From assembly GCA_964016885.1 (NCBI GenBank), contig OZ024743.1, positions 125,798,001 through 125,862,000 on the forward strand: 64,000 nt of DNA. The letters run 5' to 3'. The notes below the pieces were generated by a model. The model was given only the letters and a program-made list of their open reading frames with translations, did no database searches and was not told where the DNA came from. Of the stretch, positions 1 to 60,090 are shown piece by piece. Origin of the DNA: Eledone cirrhosa (lineage: Eukaryota). The stretch's first letter is position 1. The number at the start of each line of letters is the position of its first letter. The position numbers and the translations under genes are program-made.

Positions 1-435
1 ACCTTATGATTGCAAAGTAAACCTGTACCAGGTGCCTTCATTGTAGCACTGACACTACCACTTTCCAGAATGTATTGGGTGCATTTTTTCATGCACTACC
101 ATTTTATAGAGTATACTGGGTGCATTTTTTTCATGGCATCAGTACCATAACTTTACTCTATATATGTTTTATTTCAATAAAAGTGCCAATAGTAGGCATC
201 AGATGGGAGATAAGGAATGAAACAATTCAGAACATTAAGACAAAAAGTGATGACTTGACAGAATCATTTAAGCATCAGTTTAAATGCCTTGAGGCATTTG
301 TTCTAACTATCTGCACTCTGTGTTTATATCCTGCTACAGTCAACTTAGCTTTTCATCATTTTGAAGTTGATAAAATATGATGAAATAAACATGAATACAG
401 GATCATCAGCTGATATTTGAATATATTTCTTACTT

Positions 436-2085
436 TAGATAAGAATAAGCGCAACTATGCCTCCCCTGGTCTTGATGGGGTGACATACCTGCTTCTCAAA
501 CGTGGCGGGTATTTCCTTTTGCGCCAGCTTTCTTTCTTCTTTCAATACTGTCTCAACAATGCTGCTACTCCGGAGCAGTGGAAAACTGCCAGTGTCATTC
601 CCCTGTTCAAAAAGGGCAACCGCATATCACCTGTCAACTATCGTCCAGTCAGTCTTACTAGCTGTATGGCCAAACTGATGGAATCCTGTGTCAGAGAAAC
701 ACTTTGGAACTTCTGGAGCTCTCACAGCCTCATCCGGCCCTCACAGTTTGGATTTATCCCTAACTCCAGCTGCTGTGATCAGCTTATCGAGTTCCTTGAG
801 GACATCACCCGGATCACTGACAGCGGCTCATGGGTGGATGTTGTTTACCTTGACTTTGCTAAGGCTTTTAATTTTGTGCCACACAAAAGACTTATGGCAA
901 AACTCTCTGCAATGGGTGTGAGGGATGATCTTTTCGACTGGTTGAAATCCTTCATTCTCAGCCGGAAAGAAGTAGTCACGGTTCTAGGACAGCATTCTTC
1001 ACCATATGAGATGTCATCTGGTGTACCACAGGGATCTGTTCTTGGTCCCCTTTTGTTTGTGGCATATATTAATGACATAGATGCCAACTTACAGAATGCC
1101 ACGGTACTGAAATATGCAGATGACATTAAGCTGTACCTTGAAATCAAAAGGACTGATCCTGAAATTTACAACTCTTTTCTACAATCAGACCTGGACACAA
1201 TGCAGCAATGGATCACAGACTGGCAACTGAAGCTGGCTGTGGACAAGTGTACCACCATGCATTTTGGAAGGAAAAATCCAGCGTCCACATACTCCCTCCA
1301 CAACACTGATATCAAGAAGTCCTCTTGTGAACGTGACCTGGGCATTACTGTCAGCAGCGATTTGCGTTGGACAAAGCATGTCTCTAAGATTGTCAAGAAG
1401 GCCGAGGGTGTCTTGGCATCACTCAGCAAGACCTTTGTTAGCCGCTCTCCAGCCATCTATTTAAAACTGTATACAGCTATGGTACGACCACACTTGGAAT
1501 TCGCATCATCAGTCTGGAACCCCTATCTTGCTCAGAACATTGACCTCCTGGAAACTGTTCAGAGACGTGCAACCAAGCACATACCCTCCATCAGACACCT
1601 ACCATACTCTGAACGCCTTGCTTCCCTGGGCATGGATTCATTGAAGCTCCGACGTCTGGCAATGGACTTGGTGAATACCCACAAAGTTATTAACCATCTC
1701 GCCAATTGCAACCCTGAGCACCTTTTTGATCTCCATGTGTCTAACACATGTGGACATGCCTACAAAATCAGAAAACAGCACAGCTCCCATGACTTTTGTA
1801 GACATTTTTTCACGCTCAGAGTTGCTGAAGCATGGAACAAACTGCCTGCGTCAGTTGTTAGCTGCCGAGACACTGCATCCTTTAAGACACTCATGCTTCC
1901 CGAAATACGCCAAAACTACACCTGATGTACCCCTTCCATGCACACGTGTGTATCATGACTCGTGCACTGTTCATTTTACTGATGTTTGTGCATTGCCCTA
2001 TGTACTGTACATGCACTTTTTGATGAGTTGTGGTGCACCTGGGCACTGTACACAATATTTCATTATTATTATTGTTGTTGTTATT
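436..2085 (+). mobile_element. 5'-truncated CR1-like LINE (subfamily A), RT frame open, (ATT)n tail
   Basis: ORF 417-1925 with NYRPVSLTS, LDFAKAF, GVPQGSVLGP, YADD, RPHLEF and FF..RV...WN.LP motifs; no endonuclease; 3' UTR ends in ATT repeats. Confidence 0.95.
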
Positions 2086-3889: not shown

Positions 3890-6175
3890 GTGTGTGCACC
3901 ACAGACAAGACTGAGTAAAGAAGAAAAGGACCAGTTCTAAGAGAAACTTTTACAGACAACCTCAGTTAATGATGAAAGAGTCCTCATCTTGGCAGTTGAC
4001 TTCAATGGACATGTTGAACAATACCGTAAAGAATTCACTGGAGTTCACTGCAGCTAAGGTTATGGCTCAAGAAATTAAGGGGGATTGAGGCTCCTGGAAT
4101 TCTGTGATGCAAATGAACTAACCATTTGCAACACACTTTTCAGGTCAGCCATCTGATCGCATATCAATCAGATGGAAACACAAACCAGATTGATTTCTTA
4201 CTTGTAACATAATGAGATAGATAGATAGTGATAAATGCCACTCCCTGGGGAAGAATATACCACCCAACATAAGTTAGTTATTAGAGACATCAGGATAAAT
4301 GCAAGACAGAACAAGATACACTGGAATATATGGAGATGGAAGATTTGGAAGCTAAAGAACCTTTCTGTTAAATATAGCTTTAGAAAGGCCCTATGGGATG
4401 CATTTGATGAAAGGAGAGACAATTCATATGAATTACTGATGAGACTTGTGGGTGGAGAAAAGCACCAGCTAGACAGAGGGTGATCTGGTGGTGGAACAGC
4501 ACAGTAGATAGAGCCATTAAAGCCAAGAGACAGGCATGGGAGGACTGGAAAATGGGTGGAGCAGAGATCAATACCAGGTAGCTAAGAGGGAAGCTAGACG
4601 GCAGGTGCATAGTTCAGAAAGAGGCTGAAGAAAGTTTGCCAATATCTGGTCTCATGAGGATCAGAGATGTGAATTGTTCCACATTGCAAGGCAGTCTGTC
4701 TGTATGAATTGGGATGTTGTTGGGGGAAAGTGTGCTAGAAATGACGTTGGTGCACTTAACACCACTGATGCTCAAAAGAAAGAGGCTAGGAAATGTTACT
4801 ATGACAGATTGATGAATATAGAGAATGAATGAGAGGAAGAAAGACTTCCTCCAAGTTATCCAACGGAGAGATCAACTATTGAAGTTGACAGTTATTGGGT
4901 CAAAGAAGCAATCAAAGAAATACAGAATGGTAAAGCAGTTGGACTGTCAAAGATAGTTGCTGAGATGCTGAAAGCATCAGAAGAAGTAGGAGCCAAACAA
5001 GTAACCTGTCAATCAGGTAATACAGGAAGGAATCATACCCAATAATTGGTGCAGCAGTACAATCATAAATTGCTGTAAAGGTAAAGTTGATGCTCTAGAA
5101 AGAAGCAACTACAGAGGAATAAAACTAATGGACCAAATTATGAAAGTTCTAGCACAGCTAATTAGAGAAAGTATCAAATTAGGTGAGTCGTAATTCAGTT
5201 TTGTGCCTGGAAAAAGTGCTATAGATGCCCTCCTCTTAGTGAGGCAACTACGAGAGAAGTTCGTTACCAAGAATAAACTTGTATTTAGCTTTTGTTGATC
5301 TAGAAAAGTCCTTTGACAAAGTGCCTCGTTCTGTTATCTGGTGGCCCTTAAGAAAATTAGGGGTAGAAAAATGGCTTGTAAGAGCAATGCAAGCCATGTA
5401 CAGAGGAGCTGTGAATAAAGTGAGAGTAGGAAGTGAGTTTAGTGAGGAATTCAAGGTGCAGGTAGGAGTTCATCAGAGTTTGGTTCTCAACCCACTGCTG
5501 TCCATTATAGTTCTCTGGGTTATAACAGGAGTTTAAGACTGGCTGCCTATGGGAATTCTCTCTGTGGGTGATCTGGTCATTATAGCTGAATCCATAAAAG
5601 AACTAGAGAATAAGTTCCAACTATGAAAACAGAATTTGGAATTAAAAGGACTGAGAGTAAACTTAGCCAAAACTAAAGTGCTAGCAAGTAGGAAAGAAGA
5701 TAGGACCTTAATTCCTTCAGGGAAGTGGCCTTGCTCAATATGTAGACAAGGAGTAGGCATAAACTCCATACAGTGTACAAAATATAAATTTTAGGTACAC
5801 AAAAGATATAGTGGGATAACATGCAGACTAATGGGAAGCAAAGACTTTATATGTAGATGTAGGGGTAATTAACGAGAAGATATAAACCAGTGATATAAAT
5901 CTTTTCCAATCACATGAAGGATCCATAGAAGTGGTTAATATCTTCAGCTATCTAGGTGGCCTAATTAGCAGTGGAGGAGGGTGCTCCGAGAGCATAATAG
6001 CTAGAATAAGGATAGGATGGAAGAATTTTAGAGAGCTACTCCCACTGTTAACAACAAAAAGCTTCTCCCTATGTACAAGGGAACGGCTGTATGGTAGTAA
6101 AATATGGGCTGTGACTGCAGAAGACATGTAGGCTGGAGAGAAATGAAGCAATCATGCTTCATTGGCTGTGCAATT
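3890..6175 (+). mobile_element. Old, degraded RTE LINE (end of APE domain, RT, PHD remnant)
   Basis: Frameshifted fragments such as YLAFVDLEKSFDKVPR, VGVHQ, GGGCSESIIARIRIGWKNFRELLP. Confidence 0.88.
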
Positions 6176-13659: not shown

Positions 13660-13785
13660 ATAATAATAATAATGAAATTATTGTGTACAGTGCTCGGGTG
13701 CACTACAACTCATCAAAGGTGCATGTATAGTACATAGAATAATGTACAAATGTCAGGAAAATGAACAGTGTATGAGTCATGATAT
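13660..13785 (-). mobile_element. About 125-bp 3' tail of CR1 subfamily B
   Basis: Same sequence and same 5' start (atatcatgactc) as 2086-2212. Confidence 0.85.
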
Positions 13786-14977
13786 CATCATCATCATCAT
13801 CAGGTTTAGCGTCCGTGTTCCACGCTTGCATGGGTTTGGACGGGGGTTTTCCCACTTGAGGCAAGAGTGGTTGTCTTGCTCGCATAGGACTGTATGGCGG
13901 GTTTTCTACAGTTGGATGCCCTTCCTAACACCAACCACATTTACAGTGTGGGGCTGGGAGGTTTTTACCGTGTTGCCTACACGGCCACATTACAGCGTGG
14001 ACTGTCTGGCGGGTTTTCTACAGCTGGATGCCCTTCCTAACACCAACCACATTTACAGTGTGGGGCTGGGAGGTTTTTACCGTGTTGCCTACACGGCCAC
14101 ATTTACAGCGTGGACTGTGTGTTTTTTTGTCGTGACACCTACACGATCTCATTTGTTTCGGCCTGGATGTTGTGGGACCAACATAACTTTACATTGAAAC
14201 GGGCGGTGTGGATGGGGTGGAGGTGGTGGGACGGGGGTGTGTTTTGATAGAGATGCCTACTGACTGTAGTAGGTTTTTACTTTGTATTTAGGTAAGGCGG
14301 GTCTTCTCTATTACTGAGTACCGCCAAAGGTCTCGGTCCAGTGACATTGTCTTGGAGAGGTGTAAGCGTGTGAGGTCGGAATTTATCAGCTCGTCCCATG
14401 TTTTTCTGGGTCTGCCTACTCCGTGGCTACCGTCTATCTTTATTGCCCTGCACTTTGTTATACAGCTGTCGTCTTTCATGCGCATCACGTGACCGTACCA
14501 ACGTAGCCTTCTCTCCAGTAAACAACATCTGATCCCTCTTATTTCTAATTTTTTCCTTAGTTCGTTTATGCTTTCCCGTTCACGTATATTACTATTGCAC
14601 ATCCAGCGGAGCATGCAAGCTTCGTTCCTCTCTAGTCTGCGTATATCCTCTGCACACAATGCCCAGGTCTCACTGCCATGCAGCATTGCTGTTCGTATGC
14701 AGGCATCGTATAACCTGCCTTTCATTTTTAGGGAGAACCCTCTAGCGGCTAATAGTGGTATAAGCTCTCTGAACTTTTTCCATCCAGTTCTGACTCTAGC
14801 TACTGTACTTTCAGAGCACCCTCCCCCACTGCTGATTTTGTCACCCAGGTAACGGAAGCTGTCCACTATTTCTATAGAACCCTCTGCGCAGTTGAAGGAG
14901 CTAGTATTTTGTGGGCACTTGCTGCTACTTATTGCACCAGAGCACCGGCCACATGTAAAATCTATGTTCTTAGTTAG
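13786..14977 (-). mobile_element. 5'-truncated RTE LINE subfamily A, (GAT)n tail, 112-bp tandem duplication in the 3' UTR
   Basis: Near-identical to about 31714-32776; RRLRWYGHVMRM and GRPRKTW motifs. Confidence 0.93.
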
Positions 14978-17721: not shown

Positions 17722-18700
17722 TCTGAAGTCTGTCTCAAGCCCAGTGGCTCGTCAGGCCGGTGCTTATCCTGGTTTCTGTGGCATTAAGATACTGAGAGTA
17801 TAAGACACCCTCTTGACAGGATGCCAGTCCATCGTAGGGTTAACCCCCAAGCTATTGCTGGTATTCATTTTCAGCTGAGTATACTGGAGCAACATGAAAT
17901 AAAGTGTTTTGCCCAAGAACACAACACACAACCCAGTCCAGGAATCGAACCTACAACATTATGATTGTAAGTTCAACACCCTTACCACTTGACCATTCGG
18001 TAAGTTCAACACCCTTACCACTTGACCATGCGGTAAGTTCAACACCCTTACCACTTGACCATTCGGTAAGTCCAACACCCTTACCACTTGACCATGCGGT
18101 AAGTTCAACACCCTTACCACTTGACCATGCGGTAAGTTCAACACCCTTACCACTTGACCATGCGGTAAGTTCAACACCCTTACCACTTGACCATGCGGTA
18201 AGTTCAACACCCTTACCACTTGACCATGCGGTAAGTTCAACACCCTTACCACTTGACCATGCGGTAAGTTCAACACCCTTACCACTTGACCATGCGGTAA
18301 GTTCAACACCCTTACCACTTGACCATGCGGTAAGTTCAACACTCTTACCACTTGACCATGCGGTAAGTTCAACACCCTTACCACTTGACCATGCGGTAAG
18401 TTCAACACCCTTACCACTTGACCATGCGGTAAGTTCAACACCCTTACCACTTGACCATGCGGTAAGTTCAACACCCTTACCACTTGACCATGCGGTAAGT
18501 TCAACACTCTTACCACTTGACCATGCGGTAAGTTCAACACCCTTACCACTTGACCATGCGGTAAGTTCAACACCCTTACCACTTGACCATGCGGTAAGTT
18601 CAACACCCTTACCACTTGACCATGCGGTAAGTTCAACACCCTTACCACTTGACCATGCGGTAAGTTCAACACCCTTACCACTTGACCATTCGGCTTCACA
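17722..18700 (-). mobile_element. tRNA-derived SINE whose 5' head is tandemly amplified
   Basis: Minus-strand A box TGGTCAAGTGG and B box GGTTCGATTCC; related bodies at about 6625-6845, 7090-7340 and 43880-44125. Confidence 0.85.
17967..18692. repeat. Minisatellite, 22 x 33 bp (GTAAGTTCAACACCCTTACCACTTGACCATGCG)
   Basis: Direct count; single-base variants in units 1, 3, 4, 12, 17 and 22. Confidence 0.98.
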
Positions 18701-19734
18701 TTTGGTTGTTACTCTCATTGAAAATAGTTAAGTTAATGTTAACATACTGTAGTGAGCATTAAATATGTTGACTAGAATTAATTAAAATAGACCCTCCATT
18801 GGTTTCAACTATGAGTGTTCCAGTTATTCAATCAATGTAACAGCCTACTCATGAAATTAATGTGTAAAATGGCAGAATATTCCACAGGCACATATACCCT
18901 TAATTTGCAGGGAGATTCAGTGTGATAAAGCTGACCCTTTGAATTACATATACTGTCCAACCAACAGGCTTCCAAACAGTTCCTGTCCACCCAATTTCAT
19001 TCACAAGGTTTGGGTCAGTCCAAAGCTATGATAAATGACACCTGCCCAAAGTGCCACACAGTGGGATCGAATTCAGGACCTAATAAATGCAAAGCAAACT
19101 TCATAACCATGCTACGTCCACACGAGAAGGGATTATGTGGTGAGTAAAAGACAGTATTAGTCAATGATTGGTCTTGTGCCAAAAGTAGAAACAATTATGT
19201 TAATTATTCTTGCAGTATGGGAGACAACTGAATCATGTTTCAACCTTATTAAATCTCCCTCCTCAGCAAAGCATAGACTTCACTATATTTACCAAATTAG
19301 TTAGAAGAGAGTAAAAGTGTTGCTAAAAAAATGCAGCTAATGCACTCTGTAAAGTGGCTGGTATTCAAATAATAACAACTTAGGGTATAGGAGACTCTTT
19401 GGTTTTGTCATGGACATGACAACCTTCCTAGTGCTAGTGTCATGACAAGATGCACCTAGTACACTCTATAAAATGATTGGTGTTAGGAAGAGCATCAAGC
19501 TGTAGAAATCACACTAAACATGGAATGTACACGAGACATGGTCCTCAGGCTCATCTCAGAGAGTTGTAACTCCGAATAAGAACCTGAGTTGGGCTTTAAT
19601 GACCATTCAACACTTGTCAGTGTGGAAAGCAGATATAAAGTATTTATGATGATGGTGATATTACCTGTTTGTGTTTTTATGTTCCACTAAATTTAAGGAG
19701 TAACATCCTCTATTTTCTTCTTTTTTTTTTCCAG

Positions 19735-21603: not shown

Positions 21604-24600
21604 TCTATATATATAAAACAGATGATGTCTGTCTGTGTAACCGCATGCATTTCTACATTTTACAACCGATTTGCACCAAATTTTATACATAGGTTTCTGA
21701 AGTCCTATTACGCGTCGTAGGCTATTTTATTTTTCCGTACATCGATTGTGTGTGTGTGTGGGGGGGGGGGTGTCATTTATTGAATTTGGCTATTGTAATG
21801 CAGCAAAGCGTCATAGCTTCGATAATTGGTAGTCCAATAAAATGAATTTTGACTTAGTAGTTATTCATGTACTACAGATGAAGATACAGTGAGGCACATT
21901 TACTTTCATTTCAATTCAAGAGGACCCCCTCGGGGACAGTGAGCCCTATAAAAGTTCAAACTGCCACAATAAAAAAGCACCATACCCTCGGGAGTTTATA
22001 CTTGATTCTTACAAAAACTAAACAAAATGGTTATTGCCTGCCATTAGATAAAGCACCACACATTCGTTATCACTTGAATTTTTGCAAGGGAACCCCCTAG
22101 GGAGGGCAGTGAGCCCCTTTGGAGCACTTTTAAAGTTCATATTATGGTCGCAGCAAAGCATTTCAACTTCTGGAAATAAAAGTCAATTTAAACGAAAGTT
22201 GACGCATCGGTTACTCGTCCTACAAATGGAGTAGCGAATTTTTAAATCCCCCTGACTTAACTTTAGTTTGTTTAGTTAACTTTAGGATGATTGAATTTAA
22301 TTTTGCACCCGGTTGTCTCCCCCGTGTAATTGCACCACAAGTGCGGAATGGGGAGTTGAATTTTTTTCCTTGAACTTTGGCGTCATTTCAAACTCCTAAC
22401 CAAGAAAGTGCGATTTAGTCCAGGTGTAAATTTTAATGCCTACAGTATGTGGATTGTGCTATTTCACACTCATGCCTAAACTGTGCGAATGATTGATTAG
22501 TTTTTGCACCCAGTTGTCTCCCCCCGTTTAATTGCACCTCAATTAAGTGCGAAATGGCGACCTCTGGCCAACCACACATCAGTGAGTTGTGTTCAGTAGA
22601 TTTCATCACACTTATTTGTATTATCTAATCAATCAGACAACTTGAGTGTTGTTCATTGAGCGAAATCACTCCTATTTATATCAGTCAAGTCCAACCTAGC
22701 ATCACACTTCTTTTTTGGCTTTTGACAAGTGGTAGGTTTTTTTATATGCGTACTCTCATAAGCTACCCCATGTTTCTGAAATGCATGCTTCTTCAACATT
22801 TGTCACCTTAAAGGAGGTTTAGTTAATGTGTTTATGGTCATAAGGTTCCAGTTTATCATGCTGTGATTTTTCGGCCATTTTTGCCTGTATCCTTTCAATG
22901 GTTAGTACTTACTTATTGCTATGTTCGAACTGAACAAACATACTGACACTTATATACCTACCACTGTAGCCACACTATTTAATTTCCTTTATCACAAGTA
23001 GTCCATACGCTGCGTTGCCCCTAAACTTAAAACTTGAAATTTGACTGGTACACAAAATCTTGCAAAATATACCCACTTTCTCAGACCACATAGATTTATC
23101 ACATTTTTTCACAATTTATATCCGTGTTTAGATTTGCTTACTTAAACATCATTTGTCCACTATCTTTCTCCCTGGTTAATTTTCTAAAAACAATGCTAAG
23201 AAAAGAACTTTCATTGGTCAATTATCTAATGATGCAAGTAGGTCTAAGCGAAGGCGTCTCACCGAAGGAGAAAATGCAACTGCGATCAGGCTCTCACAGA
23301 ATGCTGTGCAGACGGCAGCTGCAGGAGCGGAGGAGGATGACAGTCGGCGTGAACTTCGACGGAACAAAGATGCTGCCGCGACTGCTGCTGCTCGCGCTCG
23401 AGAGGATGAAGGACGACGCGCTGTTCGAAAACGCAGGGATGCCACTGCAACAGCCACTGCTCGCGCTCGAGAGGATGAAGGCCGACTTCTGCAAAGTGAA
23501 CAGCAGCGATCATCGTTACGTGGCATTTCTAGGACTTGCAATTCATGATGGTTGTTGAAGGCCTTTAACTACGACCCCTCCTCCAACTACGCTGTGCTTG
23601 CCTGGAAACCTGCACGTCTACAAGTCCCTTGACTCTATGGCTGATCCGGACGAAGTTGTTAATTACACCACAAAATTTCGTAACTCCCTAGACTCTCCCG
23701 GATTGCCACCACACTTACTGCAACTTAAGAAAGGGGCCCCTGTCATGCTCCTCAGGAATTTGGAACCCCAAAGGCTTTCCAACAGCACACGTCTGGTCGT
23801 CCAAAAGATGATGCCTCATGTTATTGAGGCAACAAAACTTACAGGATGTGGTAAGGGGGATACTGTCTTCATACCAAGGATACCTCTCATTCCATCCGGT
23901 AAAGACATTCCTTTCACATTCAGAAGGCTGCAATTTCCTCTCAGTTTCACCATGTCGATTAATAAATCACAGGGTCAGACGCTGACGGTCATAGGGCTTA
24001 TTTTAGAAGAACCGTGCTTCTCCCATGGTCAACTATATGTTGGCTGCTCTTGAGTGGGGAGCCGACGTAACCTATTTGCTTTTGCAACTCGCGAGAAAAC
24101 CCAAAATATAGTCTATAAGGAAGTTTTGTAGGCACCCCATCCGCCAACAAGTAATCGCTGTTTCTTTTTGTATAAATGCTTACATTTGCTGTATCCGTGT
24201 GCTATTTTTGTCCTTTTGATGATACCACGTACACCTCTGAGGTTGCTTTTGCTATACGGTATAAATGTTCAATGTCTCCATTTTCTGCATTTATATGTTG
24301 CTATTACGCTTTGCTATTGATGTTCCGTAGTTTTAACCTAATTAATCTACTTTTCCCTACATCTTATTTACATATTTTTTTGACATGCCAGCGTGATCTT
24401 GCCAAGGCCGTTTTTAGGGCCACCAACTTTAAATTGTTACCATCGGATTCGTCTTTGTTGGCAGCACCGCCACAGATATATTTCAAAGTGAATGTTCAAA
24501 GGCCCTCTTTAGGGCCAACACCTATAAATTGTTACCTCTATAGTCATGTTTAACGGAAGTCTTTCGGTTCATATGAATGACTACTCCATTAAGAGTTATA

Positions 24601-24627: not shown

Positions 24628-25625
24628 TTTAATAATAAAGGATAAACTTTTTATTTTGCTTTCTTAGTTCAAATCTTGCCAAGTTCAATTTTATATTTCA
24701 TCCTTTCAGGGTTGATATTACCTGTCTTGGGTGGTGGATTGGCAAAATTATTAGAGCATCAGATGCAATGTCTTGTAGTATTTGTCATACTCTGTGTTCT
24801 AAATTTAAATTCTGCTTCCTAATACTTGAAAAAAATGGTGAAATGACAGGACCGTGATGCCTATCATTAAAATATCCCGGATGTCTCTTATATGATATAA
24901 ACTCATAGGAGGCTGGCTAAAACCTACTTTGGTGTGAGCCTAACAACACCAGCAAACATCACATGACTTGAAAATTAAAGTAAAATTATAATTAAGATGC
25001 AAATACTTGCTGGTCATTGTAATTTTCAAGATTATACATTATTACTTTTTTATATATGTCTTATTGTTATCATATGCATTAAAACATATATGGAGTGAAT
25101 ATAAGCAAAGAGATTCGAACTATTGTTCCGCAGTTGCCTAAATAGATAATTCAACCTCATACACTGACCTTTTGGCCTCAGAGATAAGCCACTTCCTTTG
25201 TACTGTACACAACGAATTTTACTTCCTTTTTGGGGGGGGGGGGGGGGGGACTCATGTGTTGCTAAATTGTCTAGAGGAATAGTTCTATTGAGACCATTTG
25301 CTTATCATCAAAGATAATAGACCCCTTCATAAATAGTCTGCCCTCAGCTGTCCAAGCCAGTTCAGTTCATGAAAGATATCAGAACAATATAGTTTGTCAA
25401 CAGACTCACTGGGGCTCAGCTTTTTCAGCCAGCAAACTATGACAGTCATTCTCCCATTCAATTCCAACAAAGGTTAGTTACATACAACCTTTAAGATTAC
25501 TACTACAAGAATCCATGCCAAAACATCACACAAACAATACACAATTTTACTGTGACTGTTGTTTTTCCTATGTTATCACAATAACTTCAAAGCAAATTAT
25601 TACTTAATAAAATTATGAAAGTAGT

Positions 25626-27090
25626 CATCATCATCATCATCACCGTTTTACGTCCGTTCTTTCACGCTAGCATGGGTTAGACGGGTTGTCCTGTTGTGTG
25701 CAGTGTCTGGTCGGCTGACCATGCCTTGCTCATACAGGAACTGATCTGGCTTGATTTCTACAGCTGGATGCCCTTCCTAACACCAACCTCATTTACAGTG
25801 AGTGCTGGGTGCTTTTTCGTGGCGCCTACACGTCCACTTTACAGTGTGGGCTGGGTGCTTTTTTGCCGTGGCACCTCCACGACCACCTTGCGGTGGGGGC
25901 ATATTGTTTATATGCTTCAGCATGTACCCATGGGAGGTCGGGTACTCTGTATTACTGCGTGACGCCAGAAGTCACGGTCGTGTGTCATTGTCTTTGAGAG
26001 GTGTAATTGGGTAAGGTCGGCTTTTATCACCTCATCCCAAGTCATCTTGGGTCTCCCCACTCCGCAGTTTCCATCAACTTCTAGTGCTCTGCACCTTTTT
26101 ATGCAGCTGTCATCCTTCATACGCATCACATGTCCATACCAGCGTAACCGCCTCTCCTGCATGCAGCATTTGATTCCTCTTATGCTCAGTCTCTCTCTCA
26201 ATTCATTTATGCTTTGTCGTTCACGTATATTACTGTTTCACATCCATCGGAGCATGCAGGCTTCGTTTCTCTCTAATCTACGTAAGTCTTCCACCTTCAG
26301 CGCCCAGGTCTCACTACCATGCAACATCGCTGTTCGGATACACGCATCATCCAGTCTGCCTTTCATTCTGAGGGAGAAGCCTTTTGCAGCTAGCAGTGGT
26401 AGTAGTTCCCTAAACTTCTTCCATCCCGTTCTTACCCTAGTTATTGTACTTTCTGAACACCCACCTCCGTTGCTAATTCGGTCACCTAGGTAGCAGAAGC
26501 TGTCTACTGTTTCTACAGGGCCCTCCCAGAGATTGGTGGTACTTGTTTCCTGTGGCTGTTTGCTGCTTGCTGTTTCAGCACAGCTGCTGCATGTGAATCC
26601 TACATTCTTAATTAAGCTTCCTGAGATCCCACTACATCTCTTGTGTACCCATTGTTTGCATTTGGGGCAGAGAATGGAGTTCCTACTTACACCTTTCCTA
26701 CATACTGAGCAAGGCCATTTCCCTGAGGGGATCTGGGTTCTGTTTTCTCGTCTACTTACAAGGACCTTAGTCTTTGTCATGTTGACTTTGAGACCCTTTC
26801 TCTCTAGTCCCTGCTTCCAGGTTTGGAATTTATTCTCTAGTTCTATCATAGATTCAGCTATGAGTGCGAGGTCATCAGCATACAGGAGTTCCCATGGGCA
26901 TCTGGTCTTAAATTCCTCCGTTATTGCCTGCAGGACTATGATGAACAGGAGAGGGCTAAGAACAGAGCCCTGGTGGACCCCAACCTGTACGCTAAATTCC
27001 TCGCTATACTCATTGCTAATCCTAACTTTGCTGACTGCTCCCCTATACATGGCTTGTACCGCTTTCACAAGCCATTCATCTACTCCTAGT
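25626..27090 (-). mobile_element. 5'-truncated RTE LINE subfamily B
   Basis: VGVHQGSVLSP, YADD, PHD finger, RRLRWYGHV; (GAT)n tail; one internal stop. Confidence 0.94.
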
Positions 27091-27283
27091 GGTTTTTGTT
27101 ATTGTTCATTCACATTTTTAACAACAATCTGATTGTTGGTAAAATACTATTAACATACTAGGTTTTAGATATTATTTGCTAAATCATTACAAGATGTTAA
27201 GAGTTAAAATGGATGGTTTTATTTCATAGAACCAGAGGGGGGATTTTGGCAAGTTTATAAAACAAGTATTTTTTTTCTTTTAG

Positions 27284-28542: not shown

Positions 28543-30262
28543 TATATATATATATATATGTATAATTAGATTAAATATATAATAATTTCCTATGATCAAT
28601 AAATATATTGCTAAACATCTTTGCCACATGGCAGCATTGTAGAAATATTCAAAGCAGTGGAGAGGGTCGTATAATGTTATGGCCTGGCATATGATCCGGT
28701 TGTGTAGTGGAAAATACAGATATAGTGTGGTCAGTACAAAAAGTGTCAAAAATTAGGTTCATCAGTCTGCCAAACTGTAAGTTGAAATTATTTTATTTGG
28801 GAAAACAGACTACACATTGTAGAGTTAGCTTAGAGTGCTAAATACACAGGTGCCAGTTCTGGCTATGTTCCCTCCTGCATCAATAAGTATTCAAAGCATT
28901 CATGTTTAACTCTTTAGGTTCTGACTCATACATCATCATCAGCGTTTAATGTCCATTTTCCACACTTGCATGGGTTAGGCGAATTGTCATTTACATGACA
29001 AGCCAGGTCCAGAGATCACGTCTTGTTCATACAATCTGTATTTTGGCTGGATTTCTATGACTGGATACCCTTCCTAACATCAACCATGTTACAGTGTGGA
29101 CTGGGTGATTTTTATTGTGACACCAATGCAGACAACAGTTCCCCTCTGTTATACCTTTATTCAGAGTTAGTTATTTACTGTTTTATTGGAACAAGATATT
29201 TATCCTGCACATCTGCTACATCTTGTGTAGTGGTACTCAAACTTATATTGTCGCAGAAACCAAATATGAAATTCCAAAACTAACAGGAACCCCCTCACTC
29301 CTATGTTTTATGGACAGTCTCCACTACACTAATTTTGCTAAGACATTTTAAGGCCATATTTCCTGTTGAAGAAGAGGTTAAACTTGCAGGCCGTATGACA
29401 GGCTTCATAACTATTGTGGGGGTCCTAGTTGAGGCAATATTTCATGGTGCCAACTTTTCAGTTGTTTATTATGACTTACAAGCTTATGATGTACCTATTC
29501 TAAACAGAATACAAATAGCATTTTCATAAGACATCAAATTCAACAAAAAATGTTTTAAGAGAGATCATTTATTTATATAAAAGGATCGACATAATAATTA
29601 TCATCATTTAATGTTCGTTTTTTGTTAGCAAAGATTGGATAGGTTGTCACAGACAAAGTCAGTACTTAATTGGAGCTACTGATCTCTCAGATGTCCCTGG
29701 CCTTCATCTCACCCAACAGAATGTGCTGGGCATCTTAACATGGCACCAACATTAGACCGGTTATCATGTCCTTTGTTTGGCAAATTTTCTATATGTATAT
29801 TGCGCTTTTCTATTTTGCTCTATCTTCTGCATCCACCTTCCCCTCCCAGCACCCTGGCTTTCATTTCCTTATCTTTTATTTTAAACCATGTTTTTCTTTA
29901 TATGACCCCACCATCTCATTCCATTTCTCATCACCACATCCATTACTGGCTTTAATCCCATCATCCTCTGCAATTCATTGTTTGTCTTCCCCTCTCTGAA
30001 TGATACTCCACTCATCCATTGAACCATTCCTTTCCAGCCTTCTCTGCTGCTCCACATTCATCACTCATGTCTCACTCCATTAAATCCTCACACATGAAGT
30101 TTCACAATCTTCCCACTACTCATCAAAGTACAATAAGAAAGTACTTAGTTATATATTACTAAACAACAAATGTTGATTTCCAGATCGTTTCTTTTAATAG
30201 TTTACAATATTGTATATATTTTCTTTCATACTGAACTTTTATATTTATATTTATTTTTTTAG

Positions 30263-30293
30263 GGAAATACTGAATCTTCTCTCATCAGAATGG
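30263..30293 (+). CDS. GTF2H2: GTF2H2 small exon H (31 nt): GNTESSLIRM(G)
   Basis: Poly-T ag acceptor, gtaaga donor, phase 0/1; SLIRMGFP motif completed by the next exon. Confidence 0.92.
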
Positions 30294-30590
30294 GTAAGAT
30301 GTTTAACACTTATTTTCCTTATGTTCTAAGCTATAACTAATGTTTTTGTTTTGCTGTTTTAACTGGGCTTGAGGATTCATCTCCTTTACATACATTTGCA
30401 TTCTCTACAGTGTGTACTGGATATGTTTTATCATGGTACCAGCACTAAGGAAGTTGTCATGTCTTTGACAAGTTTTGTATATGACTGAATGCCCCTCCTT
30501 TCACCAACTACTTTACAAAGTATCCTGGATGCGTTTTATCATGACACCAACACTAGATAGGTTGTCAGACCATTGACACAACTAAAGAGA

Positions 30591-32776
30591 GAAGTGTGTA
30601 CTAAATGATGATGGCGTACTCGCCATCACTGACGCTGATAAGAAGGTCGCTTGGAAGTGTCACTACGAGAGGCTACTAAATGAGGAGAATAAATGGGAGA
30701 AGGATAGTCTCCCCCAGATCGATCCAATAGAGGGACCAGCAGTGTTAGTTGAAGGTAGTATAATAAGTAAGGCAATCAAAGATATGAAGACGGGTAAGGC
30801 GGCTGGGCCTTCGGAAATAGTTGCTGAGATGCTGAAGGCCTCTGGAACGGTGGGACACACCATGGTCACCCGGATAGTAAACCAAGTCATACAGACTGGG
30901 GTTGTTCTGAAGGACTGGCGTAGCAGCATCATCATTAACTGTTACAAGGGTAAAGGAGACGCCCTAGATAGGAGTAACTATAGAGGCATTAAATTAATCG
31001 ACCAGGTCATGAAGGTCACGGAAAAAGTAATAGTGCAACTAATCAGAGAGAATCGATCTAGATGAAATGCAGTTCGGGTTTGTGTCAGGCAAAAGTACCA
31101 CAGACGCTCTTTTCATTGTACGACAACTACACAGGAGAAGTACCTAGCTAAAAGTAAACCCCTATACTTAGCTTTTGTCGACTTGGAGAAAGCCTTCGAC
31201 AGAGTCCCCCGTTCCATTATCTGGTGGGCTCTTAGAAAACTAGGTGTTGATGAATGGCTTGTGAGAGCTATACAAGCCATGTATAAAGAAACAGTGAGCA
31301 AGGTTAGAATTAACAACGAATATAGTGAAGAGTTTAGCGTAAAAGTTGGTGTCCATCAGGGCTCTGTTCTTAGCCCCCTACTATTTATTATTGCCCTTCA
31401 GGCTGTAACAGAGGAGTTCAAGACCGGCTGCCCATGGGAACTCCTATACGCAGATGATCTAACGCTCATAGCTGAATCAATGGCCGAGCTAGAGAAGAAA
31501 TTCCAAACATGGAAGCATGGCCTAGAATCAAAAGGCCTTAAAATTAACCTGGCTAAGACTAAAGTTCTAGTTTGTAGGAAAGAAAATAAGGCGCCGGTCC
31601 CTTCCGGGAAATGGCCATGCTCAGTGTGTAGGAAAGGCGTAGGTAGAAACTCCATTTTATGTCCCAAATGCAAAGTATGGGTGCATAAAAGATGTAGTGG
31701 GATCACAGGTAAGCTAACTAAGAACACAGATTTTACATGTGGCCAGTGCTCTGGTGCAATAAGTTGCAGCAAGTGCCCACAAAATACTAGCTCTTTCAAT
31801 TGCGCAGAGGGTCCTATAGTGGACAGCTTCCGTTACCTGGGTGACAAAATCAGCAGTGGGGGAGGGTGCTCTGAAAGTACAGTAGCTAGAGTCAGAACTG
31901 GATGGAAAAAGTTCAGAGAGCTTATACCACTATTAGCCGCTAAAGGGTTCTCCCTAAAAATGAAAGGCAGGTTGTATGATGCCTGCATACGAACAGCAAT
32001 GTTGCATGGCAGTGAGACCTGGGCATTGTGTGCAGAGGATATACGCAGACTAGAGAGGAACGAAGCTTGCATGCTCCGCTGGATGTGTAATAGTAATATA
32101 CGTGAACGGGAAAGCATAAACGAACTAAGGAAAAAATTAGAAATAAGAGGGATCAGATGTTGTTTACTCGAGAGAAGGCTACGTTGGTATGGTCACGTGA
32201 TGCGCATGAAAGACAACAGCTGTATAGCAAAGTGCAGGGCAATAAAGATAGATGGTAGCCACGGAGTAGGCAGACCCAGAAAAACATGGGACGAGCTGAT
32301 AAATTCCGACCTCACACACTTACACCTCTCCAAGACAATGTCACTGGACCGAGACCTTTGGCGGTACTCAGTAATAGAGAAGACCCGCCTTACCTAAATA
32401 CAAAGTAAAACCTACTACAGTCAGTAGGCATCTCTAACAAAATACACCACCCCCACCCCATCCACACCGCCCCTTTCAATGTAAAGTTATGTTGGTGCCA
32501 CAACATCCAGGCCGAAACAAATGAGATCGTGTAGGTGTCACGACAAAAAAAACACACAGTCCACGCCGTAATGTGGCCGTGTAGGCAACACGGTAAAAAC
32601 CTCCCAGCCCCACACTGTAAATGTGGTTGGTGTTAGGAAGGGCATCCAGCTGTAGAAAACCCGCCAGACAGTCCTATGCGAGCAAGACAACCACTCTTGC
32701 CTCAAGTGGGAAAACTCCCGTCCAAACCCATGCAAGCGTGGAACATGGACATTAAACGATGATGATGATGATGATG
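30591..32776 (+). mobile_element. 5'-truncated young RTE LINE subfamily A with target-site duplication AAAGAGA
   Basis: ORFs 30742-31065 and 31183-32397 (NYRGIKL, EKAFDRVPR, GVHQGSVLSP, YADD); aaagaga at 30584-30590 and 32777-32783. Confidence 0.95.
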
Positions 32777-32968
32777 AAAGAGACCGCTCATTCCTTTTTT
32801 TACATGGTTTCTATCGCTAGAAGCCTTTCCTGTTACTAACCATCATACAAAGGGTACCATCATACTGAAGGATCCTCTCAAACCTTTTGGGCATTGTTTC
32901 CATATATTGTACAGAAAATATAATTTTGTGTCATTTTGATTGCATACTTATATTTTATTATTCTATAG

Positions 32969-33032
32969 GTTTCCCACATCATCAACAAAGTATGGACAAA
33001 GATAAAGAAGACAGACCATCAATGTGTATGTG
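32969..33032 (+). CDS. GTF2H2: GTF2H2 exon I: FPHHQQSMDKDKEDRPSMCM(C)
   Basis: ctatag acceptor, gtaagt donor, phase 1/2. Confidence 0.92.
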
Positions 33033-34343
33033 GTAAGTAAACAATTCACTTGTTTGTTTGTATATCAGTATAAATATGGCAAATTGGCAGAGTTGCTAGG
33101 GCATCAGATTAAAATGTTTTGCAACATTTATACGGGTCCTCTGCACTCTGAATTCAAATCTTGCCATTTCTACTTTATCTTTCATCCCTTCAGGGTCGAT
33201 AAATAAAGTACCAGTCCAGGCTAATGGATTGACAGAATTGTTAGGGGTTACACATGAATGCCTTGCGGTATCTCTTTTGGCCCTTTGCCGTTCACTGAGA
33301 CAACATCAATGGCATAGAGAGGAATTGACTTGCTTGTATGAGTGACCACTGGTTTTCCACAAAGTATCTTACCCAGGCTTATACTTTGGAGAAGAACTTT
33401 CTTGGTGCAAATCCATGGTCAGTTATGACCAAAGGGAGCTTTAAAATATCAGTTCGGGCTCTTTGCACTCTGAGTTCAAATCCTGCTGAGGTCAACATTG
33501 CCTTTCATCCTTTTGAGCTCAATAAAATTAAGTACCAATCCATGGCAGTGGATTGGCAGAATTGTCAGAATATCAGATGAGATGCCTTGTAGTGTCTGTT
33601 CCAGCTCTTTACATTCTGCTGTGGCTTACTTGGGCAGTAGACTTAATATCTTGTCCAGTTTAACACCACGAGTACCCTGGATTCCTTTAGTAGAGTTTAT
33701 TCTGCAGGCATTTAGACCATTTCTCCGATTTGAGATATCTTTCCTTGCAGTCTTGGAGGCCTTGAAAAAAGGCTGATGGGTTTTGCCCTAAGCATTAAAA
33801 CAAATAATAAATAAATAAACGAAATTTAAAATTTCAGGATTGTCTCCCCTGTTGTTCTTGACGAGACTTGATAATTAAGCTAATGATTATTTCTTCTTAC
33901 CATAAATGTAATTTTAATTAATTAACATACAGTCCTCGCTCGAGCAAAGTGCGACACATGGCCAACCCTGGCCAGACTTGCCTCCCGGCGTGGAAGACCT
34001 GTCTAATCCATGCAAGCATAGAGAAATTAATTGTTTCTACTTTAGGCACAAGGCCAGCAAATTACCCAGTGCATTACTGGTACTTTATTTTATCGACCCC
34101 GTAAGGATGAAAGGCAAAGTCAACCTTGGTGGGATTTGAACTCAGATCGTAAAGGGACGTAACTATGCTGGAGTATAGAGAAATTAATGTTAAACGGAAA
34201 TGATGACAATGATGATGTCTCACTACACTAAGTATGTTGGCACCAAGCTTACTATTAAATGGATGGTTTAGTTAGTAAAACAACTTAGAGATGGTGGGGA
34301 ATGAATTCGATAGAATTGTGTGAGAGTAGGGATATACCATTAT

Positions 34344-46268: not shown

Positions 46269-47556
46269 ATGGCCTTGCTCAGTATGTAGGAAAGGTGTAG
46301 GTAGGAACTCCATTCTCTGCCCCAAATGCAAACAATGGGTACACAAGAGATGTAGCGGGATCTCAGGAAGCTTAATTAAGAATGTAGTGTTAATGCCATG
46401 ACAAAATACACCCAGTACACTCTATAAAGTGGTTGGCAAATGAATAGAGACAGCATGGCCTTGCTCAGTATGTAGGAAAGGTGTAGGTAGGAACTCCATT
46501 CTCTGCCCCAAATGCAAACAATGGGTACACAAGAGATGTAGCGGGATCTCAGGAAGCTTAATTAAGAATGTAGGATTCACATGCAGCAGCTGTGCTGAAA
46601 CAGCAAGCAAACAGCCACAGGAAACAAGTACCACCAATCTCTGGGAGGGCCCTGTAGAAACAGTAGACAGCTTCTGCTACCTAGGTGACCGAATTAGCAA
46701 CGGAGGTGGGTGCTCAGAAAGTACAATAACTAGGGTAAGAACGGGATGGAAGAAGTTTAGGGAACTACTACACTGCTAGCTGCAAAAGGCTTCTCCCTCA
46801 GAATGAAAGGCAGACTGTATGATGCGTGTATCCGAACAGCGATGTTGCATGGTAGTGAAACCTGGGCGCTGAAGGTGGAAGACTTACGTAGATTAGAGAG
46901 AAACGAAGCCTGCATGCTCCGATGGATGTGTAACAGTAATATACGTGAACGACAAAGCATAAAGGAATTGAGAGAGAGACTGAGCATAAGAGGAATCAAA
47001 TGCTGCGTGCAGGAGAGGCGGTTACGCTGGTATGGACATGTGATGCGTATGAAGGATGACAGCTGCATAAAAAGGTGCAGAGCACTAGAAGTTGATGGAA
47101 ACCGCGGAGTGGGGAGACCCAAGAAGACCTGGGATGAGGTGATAAAAGCCGACCTTACCCAATTACACCTCTCAAAGGCGATGACACACGACCGTGACTT
47201 CTGGCGTCACGCAGTAATACAGGGTTCCCGACCTCCCATGGGTACATGCTGAAGCATATAAACAATATCCCCCCCCACCGCAAGGTGGTCGTAGAGGTGC
47301 CACGGCAAAAAAGCACCCAGCCCACACTGTAAAGTGGACGTGTAGGCGCCACGAAAAAGCACCCAGCACTCACTGTAAATGTAAATGAGGTTGGTGTTAG
47401 GAAGGGCATCCAGCTGTAGAAATCAAGCCAAATCAGTTCCTGTATGAGCAAGGCATGGTCAGCCGACCAGACACTGCCCACAACAGGACAACCCGTCTAA
47501 CCCATGCTAGCGTGGAAGAACGGACGTAAAACGGTGATGATGATGATGATGATGAT
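46269..47556 (+). mobile_element. 5'-truncated RTE LINE subfamily B with a duplicated 5' junction
   Basis: Near-identical to the reverse complement of 25626-26720; 186-bp direct repeat 46199-46570. Confidence 0.92.
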
Positions 47557-56899: not shown

Positions 56900-57278
56900 T
56901 TGTATAATGATAGGTATAGCATCTTTGGTGACAACAGAATGTGTGAGGAAGAACAAGAACAGATTGAAAATATCAAGATCGGAAAAGAGAAATTGCATAA
57001 GTGTGGAGCATGAAAAAAGTTGAAATTGTGCCAGTTGTATTTGGCACTCTTTGTACAATTATGAAGAATATGAAATCATGGTTGGAGAAGATGTAAATCT
57101 AAATTCAAATAGATCTATTACAGAAAACCAGGTTATTAGGAACTGCAAGGTTCCTAAGGGAGGTGCATGAAAGTTGAGCTAATGAAAGTGTCCTGAAGGA
57201 CCTTTAGTCGTAGGTTATGACTTGCTCCTGGGATTGGAAAAATGACAAGCATCTGTGATACGGATAATAATAAAAAAA
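56900..57278 (+). mobile_element. Degraded R4/Dong-like 3' end with (TAA)n tail
   Basis: IEKYQD.KREI..VWSMKKVEIVPVVFG; LLQKT.LLGTAR.LR. Confidence 0.65.
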
Positions 57279-60090
57279 TATTTTTTCTAACACCCTCCTT
57301 AGAATCCTTCCTGTTCCTAGCAAGGTAGTTTTCTGCAACAATCCCATCTTGATGGTAATTCCTTGCTTCTCAAGCCATGCATTTAACATTTTACTAACTG
57401 CTCCCAGTGCACCAACCACAATCAGCACCACTCCTATGTGTCTGATTCTCCACAGTTTCCTGATTTTTCTCTTCAATGCCTGGTATTTTTCAACTTTCTC
57501 ACTTTCCTTCTTATTCACCCTGTGGTCCTATGGTGAAGCAATATCCACAATACATGCCTTGTTGTTCTCCTTTTCTATGACAACAACATTAGATTTTCTA
57601 GCCATGGTAAAATGGTCCCTAAGATCTTATATTGTTTGTTTTCAGCAACCCTTTCCTGTTGGTGTTTATACCATTTCTCACTTCTGCTCATGTCATATGT
57701 CCAATGAACCAATCTGGCAATGTTGTTGAGCTTTTACTTCTACTCTTTTTGAGCAAGCATCTTACATTCACTGGAGAATTCACTGACTTGATATATTGAA
57801 CTTGATGTAGTTCATTCTCAGTGCCTGTTCCTGAGCTTCAGTTTCAACTTTTAAGTCACTTTTCTTAGTCCATTCCCAGTTCTTACTTTTGTCAACTATC
57901 TCAGGCATTTCATGCAAGAATTGACCATACATTTCTTCCATTTATTCAAGGTGTCATTCTGTCTGTCTTGTTTAAATGATCCCCTTTCCTTTGCTTCATC
58001 ACTGTTTAAGACCTTTATCTCTCTTACTCCTGTCATCAATCTCTCCTTTGAATTCTGTACATACCATGCCAGATTATTTTCCTCTGACTCCACACCCATT
58101 TCACAGCCAATGAGATCTTTTCCTCCTCTCTGTCATGATAGATACAACCTGCTCATATCACTTTTGGAGTGTAGAGCCCTTTGTAGTGTCATCATTTTCC
58201 TAGTCTCTATCTAGCTCCTTAAGTTCATCACATCTCCACTCTATCACATCAGCGCTATACATTAGAGTTGCAACAGCCCATGTGTTGATAGCCAATATCT
58301 TATTCCTACTGTAGCCGGAGGCATTCGGACTTACCTTGCGTCTCTCTGGTCCATGTGGGGTACTTTCCGCTCGCGTCTGTCTTCACACGTCTCTCACAGG
58401 GCGTATAGCTAAGAGGCCTCTGTTGACTGCCTGGTCCCTTGAGTCGTCCCTGTCCTCCTGCTTCCAGTAAGGCGTCCCCCAACTTCCGGCAATCCCCTCC
58501 CACAGCAGCTCTACACTCTTCTCTATCCCGCGGCAGCCCCATACCTACCACTTAACACCAACTTCAATCTCCATTTATATTCCTTTGAGAATAGTTCTTT
58601 CATTTCCTTATTTGGTCTGTTTCCAGGATGCCTAAGTACTTATACCAGTTGTCGTCAATTTCCTTCATAACTTGTCTGTCCAGTAATTCAATTCCTTCAA
58701 TCTTATCAATTCTACCTTGCTTCACTAGTAGCACCCCACACTTTTTTATGTCAAATTCTATTCCTATGTCCATACTAAATGTATGAACTGTCTGTACATA
58801 GGATTTGCCATAAAGTTTTAGGTTTATATTAAACTCATGTCTTCCCCACTCATAACCAGCCTTTGACCTTCTCAACACCAATAAAAGTAGAATCATACAC
58901 AGTACAAACAGCAAAGGTAGAAGGCTGTCTCCTTGAAATATTCCTCTTTGATCTTCCAAAACACAAAATGTCTGTCTACATGATGTCAGCTCAGTCTTCC
59001 AACCATCCATACTGCTCACCAGAAACTGTCTAATGTTAGCTACAATACCAAACATTTCCAAACATTCTACTATCCAACTATATGGCACCATGTTGTAAGC
59101 CTTGTAGTATTCGATCCAGGCCATGGCAAGATTTGTGTGTCTCCTTTTACAATCTTTAAGGATCGCCTTATCAATCAATAATTGATACTTAGTCCCCCTT
59201 CTTCTTCTCCTACATCCCTTCTGCACTGCAGGTAGTGTCTCCTCCAGATATTCATATATTGCCTCAGCAATGGCACCTGTCATAAGTTTCCACATAAGGG
59301 GGGAGGGAGGCAAGAGATAGGTCTAAAGTTGTCAATTGTATTTCCATTGCTGGCAACCTCTCTCCTTCATTCAAAATCTTATTCAGTTGCTCAGCAATTC
59401 TCCCATGAAGGGCCCTCAGCTTTTTCAACCAGAATCCTTGCACACCATTTCTGCCGGGAGTTTTCCAATTTGGTATCTTTCTACACTGGATAGTTACCAT
59501 ATCAGTTGTTATCTCCAATTCTCCCTGTTGATCATCCCCAATGCCATTTTTGATGTTAGTCAGCCATTCCACACTTCTATTGTGCTCTTTTCCTACACTC
59601 TAGATATCGCTCCAAAACTTCTTACTTATATCCACATCAGGGATTACATCATCATTCCTAACCATGCCATTTACCTCCTGATAGAATTACTTCTGATTTT
59701 GTTGGAAACATACATTCTGTTTATACTGTGTAATCTGTTGATCATACCTCTTAATCTTTGCAACTTTGGCAAGTACCTTTTGTTTCAGCTCTTCTATTGC
59801 CATAGTAATCTTCTTTCTCCTGATATTGTACTTTCCTGTAATTTGTTCATTCTTTTCCCCCTTTTTTTAATTCACCCCATTTTTCCCTTTCCAGAGTATA
59901 AATATCTTTTCTAAGCATTTTGATGTCCCCTTCAATTCTCTTTTACCACCATGGTTCCTTGATCTGCTTTTGTGTAGTCTGTTTCAGACCTAACTCTTTA
60001 GTAATATAGATACTTGCAGTGCTGATGAGATTGTTGTTTTCTATAGTGGTTCTAGTTGGCACTGTGTCAAGGATGTTGTTTACTTTGTTA
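57279..60090 (-). mobile_element. Degraded R4/Dong-like LINE (RT plus RLE)
   Basis: [53 protein letters not shown]..., VVGALG. Confidence 0.88.
58310..58543. mobile_element. Probable solo LTR inserted into the R4-like element
   Basis: GC-rich 234-bp insert, TGT...ATA ends, 5-bp duplication CCTAC at 58305-58309 and 58544-58548. Confidence 0.65.

Follow-up and report, generated by a model that had tools for sequence, protein, structure and literature searches.

The reverse transcriptase (RT) of an RTE-type LINE in the window (the whole 64,000-nucleotide stretch of Eledone cirrhosa DNA that was analysed) carries a complete PHD finger inside its catalytic region; comparisons of sequence indicate that this finger is real, selected and widespread, and its function in chromatin is putative. 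The finger is encoded at 31618-31749 with a C4-H-C3 pattern (translation of 31609-31749: KWP-CSVC-x10-CPKC-x4-HKRC-x14-CGQC), with W at H-2 and F at C7-2. A preliminary description of this DNA had proposed this pattern, the W and an aromatic residue at C7-2 included, and the translation bears it out. Its placement of the finger in frame within the RT also stands, as does its remark that the RT resumes in frame with VDSFRYLG (here at aa 252), but two of its measures needed correction: the frame (31066-32397) is 443 aa from stop to stop and not 404 aa, and the first cysteine (C1, at 31618) lies 53 aa past YADD (aa 128-131) and not about 55, the last cysteine ending at 31749. When scored against Pfam, the same frame matched RVT_1 with E 6e-24 and PF00628 with 25.9 bits, rising to 32.4 bits for the finger alone (cut-off 24), which agrees with the PHD assignment made earlier. 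C1, RING and double-zinc-ribbon (DZR) identities were rejected, their Pfam scores being below the respective cut-offs.

A six-frame scan of the window found the finger pattern at three places only, one in a subfamily A copy and two in subfamily B copies (Table 1). Both subfamily B fingers keep 8/8 ligands, as had been claimed, and score 30.2 bits (minus-strand copy) and 31.3 bits (plus-strand copy) with PF00628. Relatives of a third subfamily, C, also carry a recognisable finger. By blastn, the subfamily A copy shares 97.6% identity with L013, an open copy of the element; it is not itself an intact gene, because it is 5'-truncated and changes frame near 31060. It is flanked by two short exon-like stretches (32970-33033 and 30262-30294) bordered by ag...gtaag, an arrangement that suggests a copy inserted in an intron of a host gene.

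Table 1. Position of the PHD finger, its surroundings in the RT and related copies in the window.
Feature	Position	Strand	Remarks
RTE-type LINE subfamily A copy	30589..32777	+	5'-truncated, (GAT)n tail; ORFs 30586-31065 + 31066-32397
YADD catalytic motif (RT motif 5)	31447..31458	+	frame 31066
RT motif 6, GLKINLAKTK	31534..31563	+	aligns with R2 and L1 RT
PHD finger (W-P-C4-H-C3)	31612..31749	+	PF00628, model, fold search; zinc ligands from 31618
Variable linker 3' of finger	31750..31827	+	dN/dS 0.37 between subfamilies; entropy 2.7 bits
RT motif 7, FRYLG	31828..31842	+	then thumb + C-terminal region up to 32397
Subfamily B finger	26580..26711	-	copy about 25625-27095
Second subfamily B finger	46462..46593	+	copy about 46455-47552
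Subfamily A copy truncated within finger	13784..14977	-	only last CxxC retained
Subfamily C (third PHD-bearing subfamily), old decayed copy	5279..6174	+	tblastn 62%

RTE elements are defined by an APE endonuclease and an RT in one ORF. Natural open copies of the finger-bearing element are single ORFs of 1075 aa (subfamily A; L013, P0074) and 1041 aa (subfamily B; L202) that contain PF03372 (APE endonuclease), PF00078 (RT) and PF00628 (PHD), and no separate ORF1 of more than 200 aa was seen upstream in subfamily B loci. In place of the C-terminal restriction-like endonuclease typical of the R2 clade, an N-terminal APE endonuclease is found, and as regards membership in that clade the position of the loop is all that the element shares with R2. 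Searches of the source genome (3.0 Gb) returned 70,567 candidates for the subfamily A query and 63,023 for the subfamily B query, which are first-look candidates and not copy numbers, and the 150 scored per query were 95-100% identical; the finger-bearing family is very abundant in this genome. A (GAT)n 3' tail was present in 59 of 60 copies. Two loci, L227 (B) and L228 (A), have internal deletions that take out most of the finger and keep the surrounding frame.

The finger is shared by many related elements. A finger-containing query retrieved 73 long proteins, 72 of them with the full pattern, nearly always 51-55 aa past YADD. With an RT-only query (2253 matches, the figures being taken from the 120 listed), 85 of 89 closer homologues (57-66% identity) have the finger, 81 in the strict form and four with all ligands at altered spacing, and the remaining four carry a damaged one; 31 catfish gene models (41-43% identity) among the same listed matches lack it. 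The earlier surmise that related RTE families may carry the finger is thereby upheld. A further search with 50% representatives found it in 13 of 103 scorable proteins and not in the other 90 (among 150 matches listed), but this search ran as a whole-ORF profile and yields outgroups, not a count of finger-bearing clusters; nor did it point to a donor of the finger. In the tree, a single branch takes in all 48 rows that bear the finger, together with three finger-less rows (FastTree support 0.93 with 140 rows; SH-aLRT 92 in a 59-row subset, with three changes), and the sequences indicate a single gain in one RTE branch followed by up to two losses. In two of the three finger-less rows of the branch, P0331 and P0373, the loop is short and clean. 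The branch groups with finger-less proteins, catfish models among them, in this tree built without a named Repbase reference; we take these catfish models to be Rex3-like. Few finger-bearing records are named: a model from the catfish Neoarius, and entries that carry bacterial labels. The latter (P0126, P0473, P0482 and P0483) are RT+PHD or PHD proteins of the family filed under Ca. Thiodiazotropha, Herbaspirillum and Salmonella names, and likely reflect contamination of those assemblies by animal DNA. In several homologues (P0013, P0018, P0025 and others), the precomputed Pfam annotation places PF27108 beside the finger; this family was absent from the Pfam scans run here.

We next considered where the finger sits in the RT. 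The distance from YADD to motif 7 is 64 aa in finger-less RTEs vs 129-132 aa in four finger-bearing variants, which makes the finger an insertion of some 60 aa that separates motif 6 from motif 7. An AlphaFold model of residues 501-1075 (575 aa, endonuclease outside the model) reached a pLDDT of 90.5, with the finger blocks at 86-93, and the rest of the model matches R2 and L1 RTs (Z 24.9 to 9dou and 23.2 to 8gh6). A PHD fold is predicted for the insert, as had been anticipated: when the finger was modelled alone (61 aa, pLDDT 77), the PHD finger of Pygopus (Pygo; PDB 2vpe, 3zpv, 4up0), which is also a top sequence match, headed the list in both fold searches (Z 5.1, rmsd 3.7 over 53 aligned residues in the first; TM 0.64-0.65, E 0.02-0.03 in the second), and almost all rows listed were PHD fingers, with scores that are modest for a 61-aa model. 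The R2Bm RT has an insertion, 6a, at the corresponding place between motifs 6 and 7, which is described as contacting target DNA via His673 and Lys675, as blocking nicking when deleted and as unique to R2 (PMC10499050). When the insert site was aligned residue by residue with R2Bm 6a, no R2 match was obtained, and the equivalence of the two loops is drawn from motif positions; by this analogy, the finger would lie near target DNA. In other respects the two differ: R2 6a is short, basic and a source of sequence specificity, and the RTE insert is a 60-aa zinc finger in a non-site-specific APE element.

The predicted ligand surface was compared across 148 finger-bearing proteins, in which RT identity is only 48-67%. 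By Pygo2 alignment and motif position, the Trp at H-2 (99% conserved) corresponds to Pygo W366, position C1-2 (Y/W/F/H in 93%) to Y341, V822 (89%) to V350, residue 826 (S/A/C, 100%) to A356 and residue 827 (I/V, 97%) to I357, all five being conserved in kind. In the account given by PMC2726290, the Pygo K4me2 cavity is walled by W366, Y341 and D352 on a base of V350 and A356, I357 contacts T3, and mutation of E360 reduces binding to background. The aromatic features of H3K4me2/3 readers (Trp at H-2, a second aromatic and small base residues) are present in the RTE finger, and the acidic ones (the E360/Arg2 pocket and D352) are absent: residue 830 is T/S/G/N/V, and 823-824 are G and R/S. The Arg2 pocket of RAG2 is likewise described as lacking an acid (PMC3241642). 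The same source characterizes H3K4me0 readers of the BHC80 and AIRE type by acidic residues clustered ahead of C1 and by the lack of an aromatic cage; the RTE finger has an aromatic at C1-2, the cage Trp and an acid only at C1-6, in about half of the proteins. Its loops are also shorter than those of Pygo and its net charge is basic (+2 to +11, median +7, with K838 and K/R839 conserved), in contrast to the negative histone face of Pygo. The pocket points to methyl-lysine as the ligand, the charge to nucleic acid; PZP domains are known to bind H3 and DNA together (PMC10124903). A complex prediction for the finger with two Zn and an unmodified H3 tail, in which the alignment was unused, scored 0.00 and counts neither way.

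Because the pocket residues are conserved, we infer that the finger may read methyl-lysine, and our preferred reading, to which we tentatively assign a probability of about 45%, is that it acts as a chromatin grip in target-primed reverse transcription, joining a Pygo-like H3K4me pocket to a basic surface for target DNA. The motif 6-7 loop would hold the finger close to target DNA, as R2 6a does, the pocket is predicted to take up an H3 tail methylated at lysine-4, the basic surface would touch the DNA, and insertion would presumably be biased, weakly, to active, gene-body-methylated chromatin. Several observations stand against the chromatin grip: at least one lineage of the branch (P0331, P0373) lacks the finger, the D352/E360 acids are absent, and the net charge is basic where the histone face of Pygo is negative. 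Moreover, H3K4me3 is a mark of CpG-rich promoters, not of CpG-poor gene bodies. The stronger proposition, that a major animal RTE lineage uses a methyl-histone reader in its RT 6-7 loop to aim insertions into transcribed, gene-body-methylated chromatin, we hold to be doubtful; if true, this would be chromodomain-style targeting exerted by the polymerase itself, a first among non-LTR elements, and RT gene-writing tools could take it as a natural model for engrafted targeting modules.

In octopus, 5mC is described as marking gene bodies, those of broadly expressed genes, rather than transposons (PMC9476566), and low flank CpG therefore served as a proxy for such chromatin. For this, masked 5-kb flanks (whole 10-kb loci for an R4-like LINE) were scored as CpG-poor at a CpG o/e <0.5, loci with too little unmasked DNA being dropped (A 1, B 5, CR1 3, random 7, R4-like 2). 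CpG-poor flanks were found for 26/39 A and 8/15 B copies (34/54 together), 13/33 random loci, 24/37 copies of a young CR1 family and 3/18 copies of the young R4-like LINE, which is without PHD. The two subfamilies together differ from random loci (p 0.031) and from the R4-like LINE (p 1e-4), and subfamily B alone is not significantly different from random (p 0.24). The same shift is seen in the CR1 family, whose RT is finger-free (A+B vs CR1, p 0.43; A vs CR1, p 0.54). This control is ambiguous, since a PHD-like Cys8 pattern, with C replacing H, a long loop and no Pfam match, occurs at the N-terminus of its ORF1 (about 460 aa; L198:2557-4068, +; family of window 414-1925). The same ORF1 contains a glutamine/histidine tract. 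Within 500 kb, copies of A, B and CR1 co-clustered only weakly, and all three did so.

Two finger-less RTE families exist in the same genome (L229-L271; L250 and L272-L300), with about 92% pairwise identity. With flanks of about 1 kb, 11/20 loci of a new B set were CpG-poor against 6/33 and 5/30 for these families (p 0.002; starting from 29 B and 37 and 31 finger-less loci, with the window copy and duplicates left out), a contrast inflated by a best-hit choice that favours unmethylated copies of these older finger-less families. CpG transitions within the copies agree with the flanks, their excess being 3.3x in A, 6.4x in B, 3.2x in CR1, 1.7x in finger-less RTEs and 0.67x in the R4-like LINE. 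An old PHD subfamily had CpG-poor flanks at 25/29 loci, which is mostly a matter of age or query bias; we discount it because old finger-less R4-like copies are equally CpG-poor by median (raw CpG 31 vs 30 per locus for old PHD copies), although 9/29 of these R4-like loci exceed the PHD-set maximum of 52 CpG, in counts made by hand on unmasked DNA with a threshold set afterwards and a query taken from the window. A MELT table for O. bimaculoides (74 'intronic', 55 'pass') was set aside, its element not being tied to the finger. The R4/Dong-like LINE (L210-L226) is a single ORF of 1141 aa with copies up to 99% identical, which inserts in tandem beside existing copies of itself and is free of CpG decay; old relatives of it lie in the window at 57204-59914 (-). 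Altogether, the idea put forward in the preliminary description, that the finger could steer integration, fares unevenly. In its favour are the Pygo-like pocket, the R2-type loop and the modest CpG-poor shift of young copies; against it are the absence of acidic contacts, the basic character of the domain, the CR1 shift and the CpG-poor old finger-less copies. Steering by the finger is only suggested, because of these last two findings.

An alternative that we consider unlikely, if worth serious attention, is that the finger is a nucleic-acid clamp only, gripping upstream target DNA or the element RNA, with a histone pocket that is a relic or packs elsewhere. The position of the loop, identical to that of R2 6a, would fit such a clamp, as would the median charge of +7 with its conserved K838 and K/R839, the missing acidic histone contacts and a CpG-poor shift that is not specific to finger-bearing RTs. 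On the other hand, the exposed pocket (Trp 99%, aromatic 93%, G-V-G, N-S-I) is conserved beyond most of the basic residues. Against a clamp, too, no sequence-specific target was evident for the finger-bearing RTE other than (AT)n-type microsatellites: 18/59 junctions enter purine-pyrimidine dinucleotide repeats of this type, vs 2.7% of random positions, and the eight finger-less RTE junctions inspected often run into dinucleotide repeats as well.

It is less probable still that the finger is a protein-protein module, which either docks a non-histone host factor (a chromatin, repair or replication protein, or a protein that mimics methyl-lysine) or packs on the element's own endonuclease and so coordinates nicking and priming. 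A hydrophobic pocket conserved without its acidic rim could serve such a contact; the Pygo PHD is reported to bind the non-histone protein HD1 via another face (PMC2726290), and solved PHD fingers with non-histone peptides occur among the fold-search rows. The conserved residues, however, fall on the canonical H3 face, the partner is hypothetical (no counterpart of HD1 is known for the RTE finger), and the folded model is one without the endonuclease.

We then compared the majority codons of 21 subfamily A loci with those of 20 subfamily B loci, excluding L011. The dN/dS was 0.10 for the finger, 0.04 for RT motifs 0-6, 0.06 for motif 7 plus thumb and 0.37 for the linker, values that are rough since synonymous sites are close to saturation, and 8 of 47 finger residues differ between the subfamilies. 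Within-subfamily dN/dS was set aside, the loci having been chosen by likeness to a finger-containing query. The value for the finger speaks against the neutral evolution that would have undermined the original proposal, and on codon evidence the finger is under purifying selection. Among homologues, the entropy of the first half of the finger is 1.22 bits vs 1.15 bits for the RT core (148/184 proteins), and that of the linker 2.7 bits. That the finger is a tolerated, functionless passenger captured once in a surface loop is thus very improbable and largely refuted by its dN/dS and by a first half conserved like the RT core in proteins of such low RT identity, even though finger-less RTEs are successful (the 90/103 scorable representatives among the matches listed) and the finger is missing in at least one lineage inside the branch.

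The architecture of LINE ORF2 is held to be under tight constraint, and in APE-type LINEs the endonuclease is usually seen as the part that selects the target. In chromoviruses, a chromodomain reader sits on the integrase C-terminus and its steering is demonstrated; these resemble the finger-bearing RTE in that a chromatin-reader domain is fused to the integration protein, and differ in being LTR elements. Among APE-type LINEs, PHD fingers are described in CR1/L2 elements, within ORF1 or at the 5' end of the ORF (PMC4120745), where one CR1 subgroup has a Pygo PHD, 2vpb, as its top structural match; in those elements the finger precedes the endonuclease, and in the RTE it is set into the RT, between motifs 6 and 7, of a single ORF. 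Chlamys Penelope-like elements also have PHD insertions in an RT, or in the endonuclease, for which a chromatin role has been proposed (PMC8557442), but they belong to the PLE class, are known as five families in green algae, and carry the RT insertion between RT2a and RT3. A one-ORF RTE with a zinc finger has been reported from Octopus vulgaris, RTE-2_OV, with EN, RT and a C2H2 finger and an ORF that enters a microsatellite (PMC9115989). We rejected identity with RTE-2_OV, as 4/4 tested primers differ from subfamilies A and B at 5-8 of 20 bases. Our literature search found no account of a PHD finger inside an RTE RT, though subscription papers, Repbase, Dfam or supplements might hold one; text matches for PHD in PMC9004415 and PMC4408412 were to 'PhD thesis', and neither PHD nor zinc was found in the main text of PMC2887409. 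The pairing of RVT_1 with PHD is already visible in the precomputed Pfam annotations of homologues. An entire folded domain is tolerated in the RT 6-7 loop, for which elaboration has been described in R2 only; this bears on RT engineering, and a small soluble domain of 60 aa with clear point mutants would make the reading of chromatin marks by a LINE at insertion directly testable.

The window contains two further features. A fragment of a Helitron-type Pif1 helicase lies at 23559-24053 (+; PF21530, E 4e-15) and has many genomic relatives, and a tandem array with a 33-base unit, open in several frames, occupies 17898-18731.
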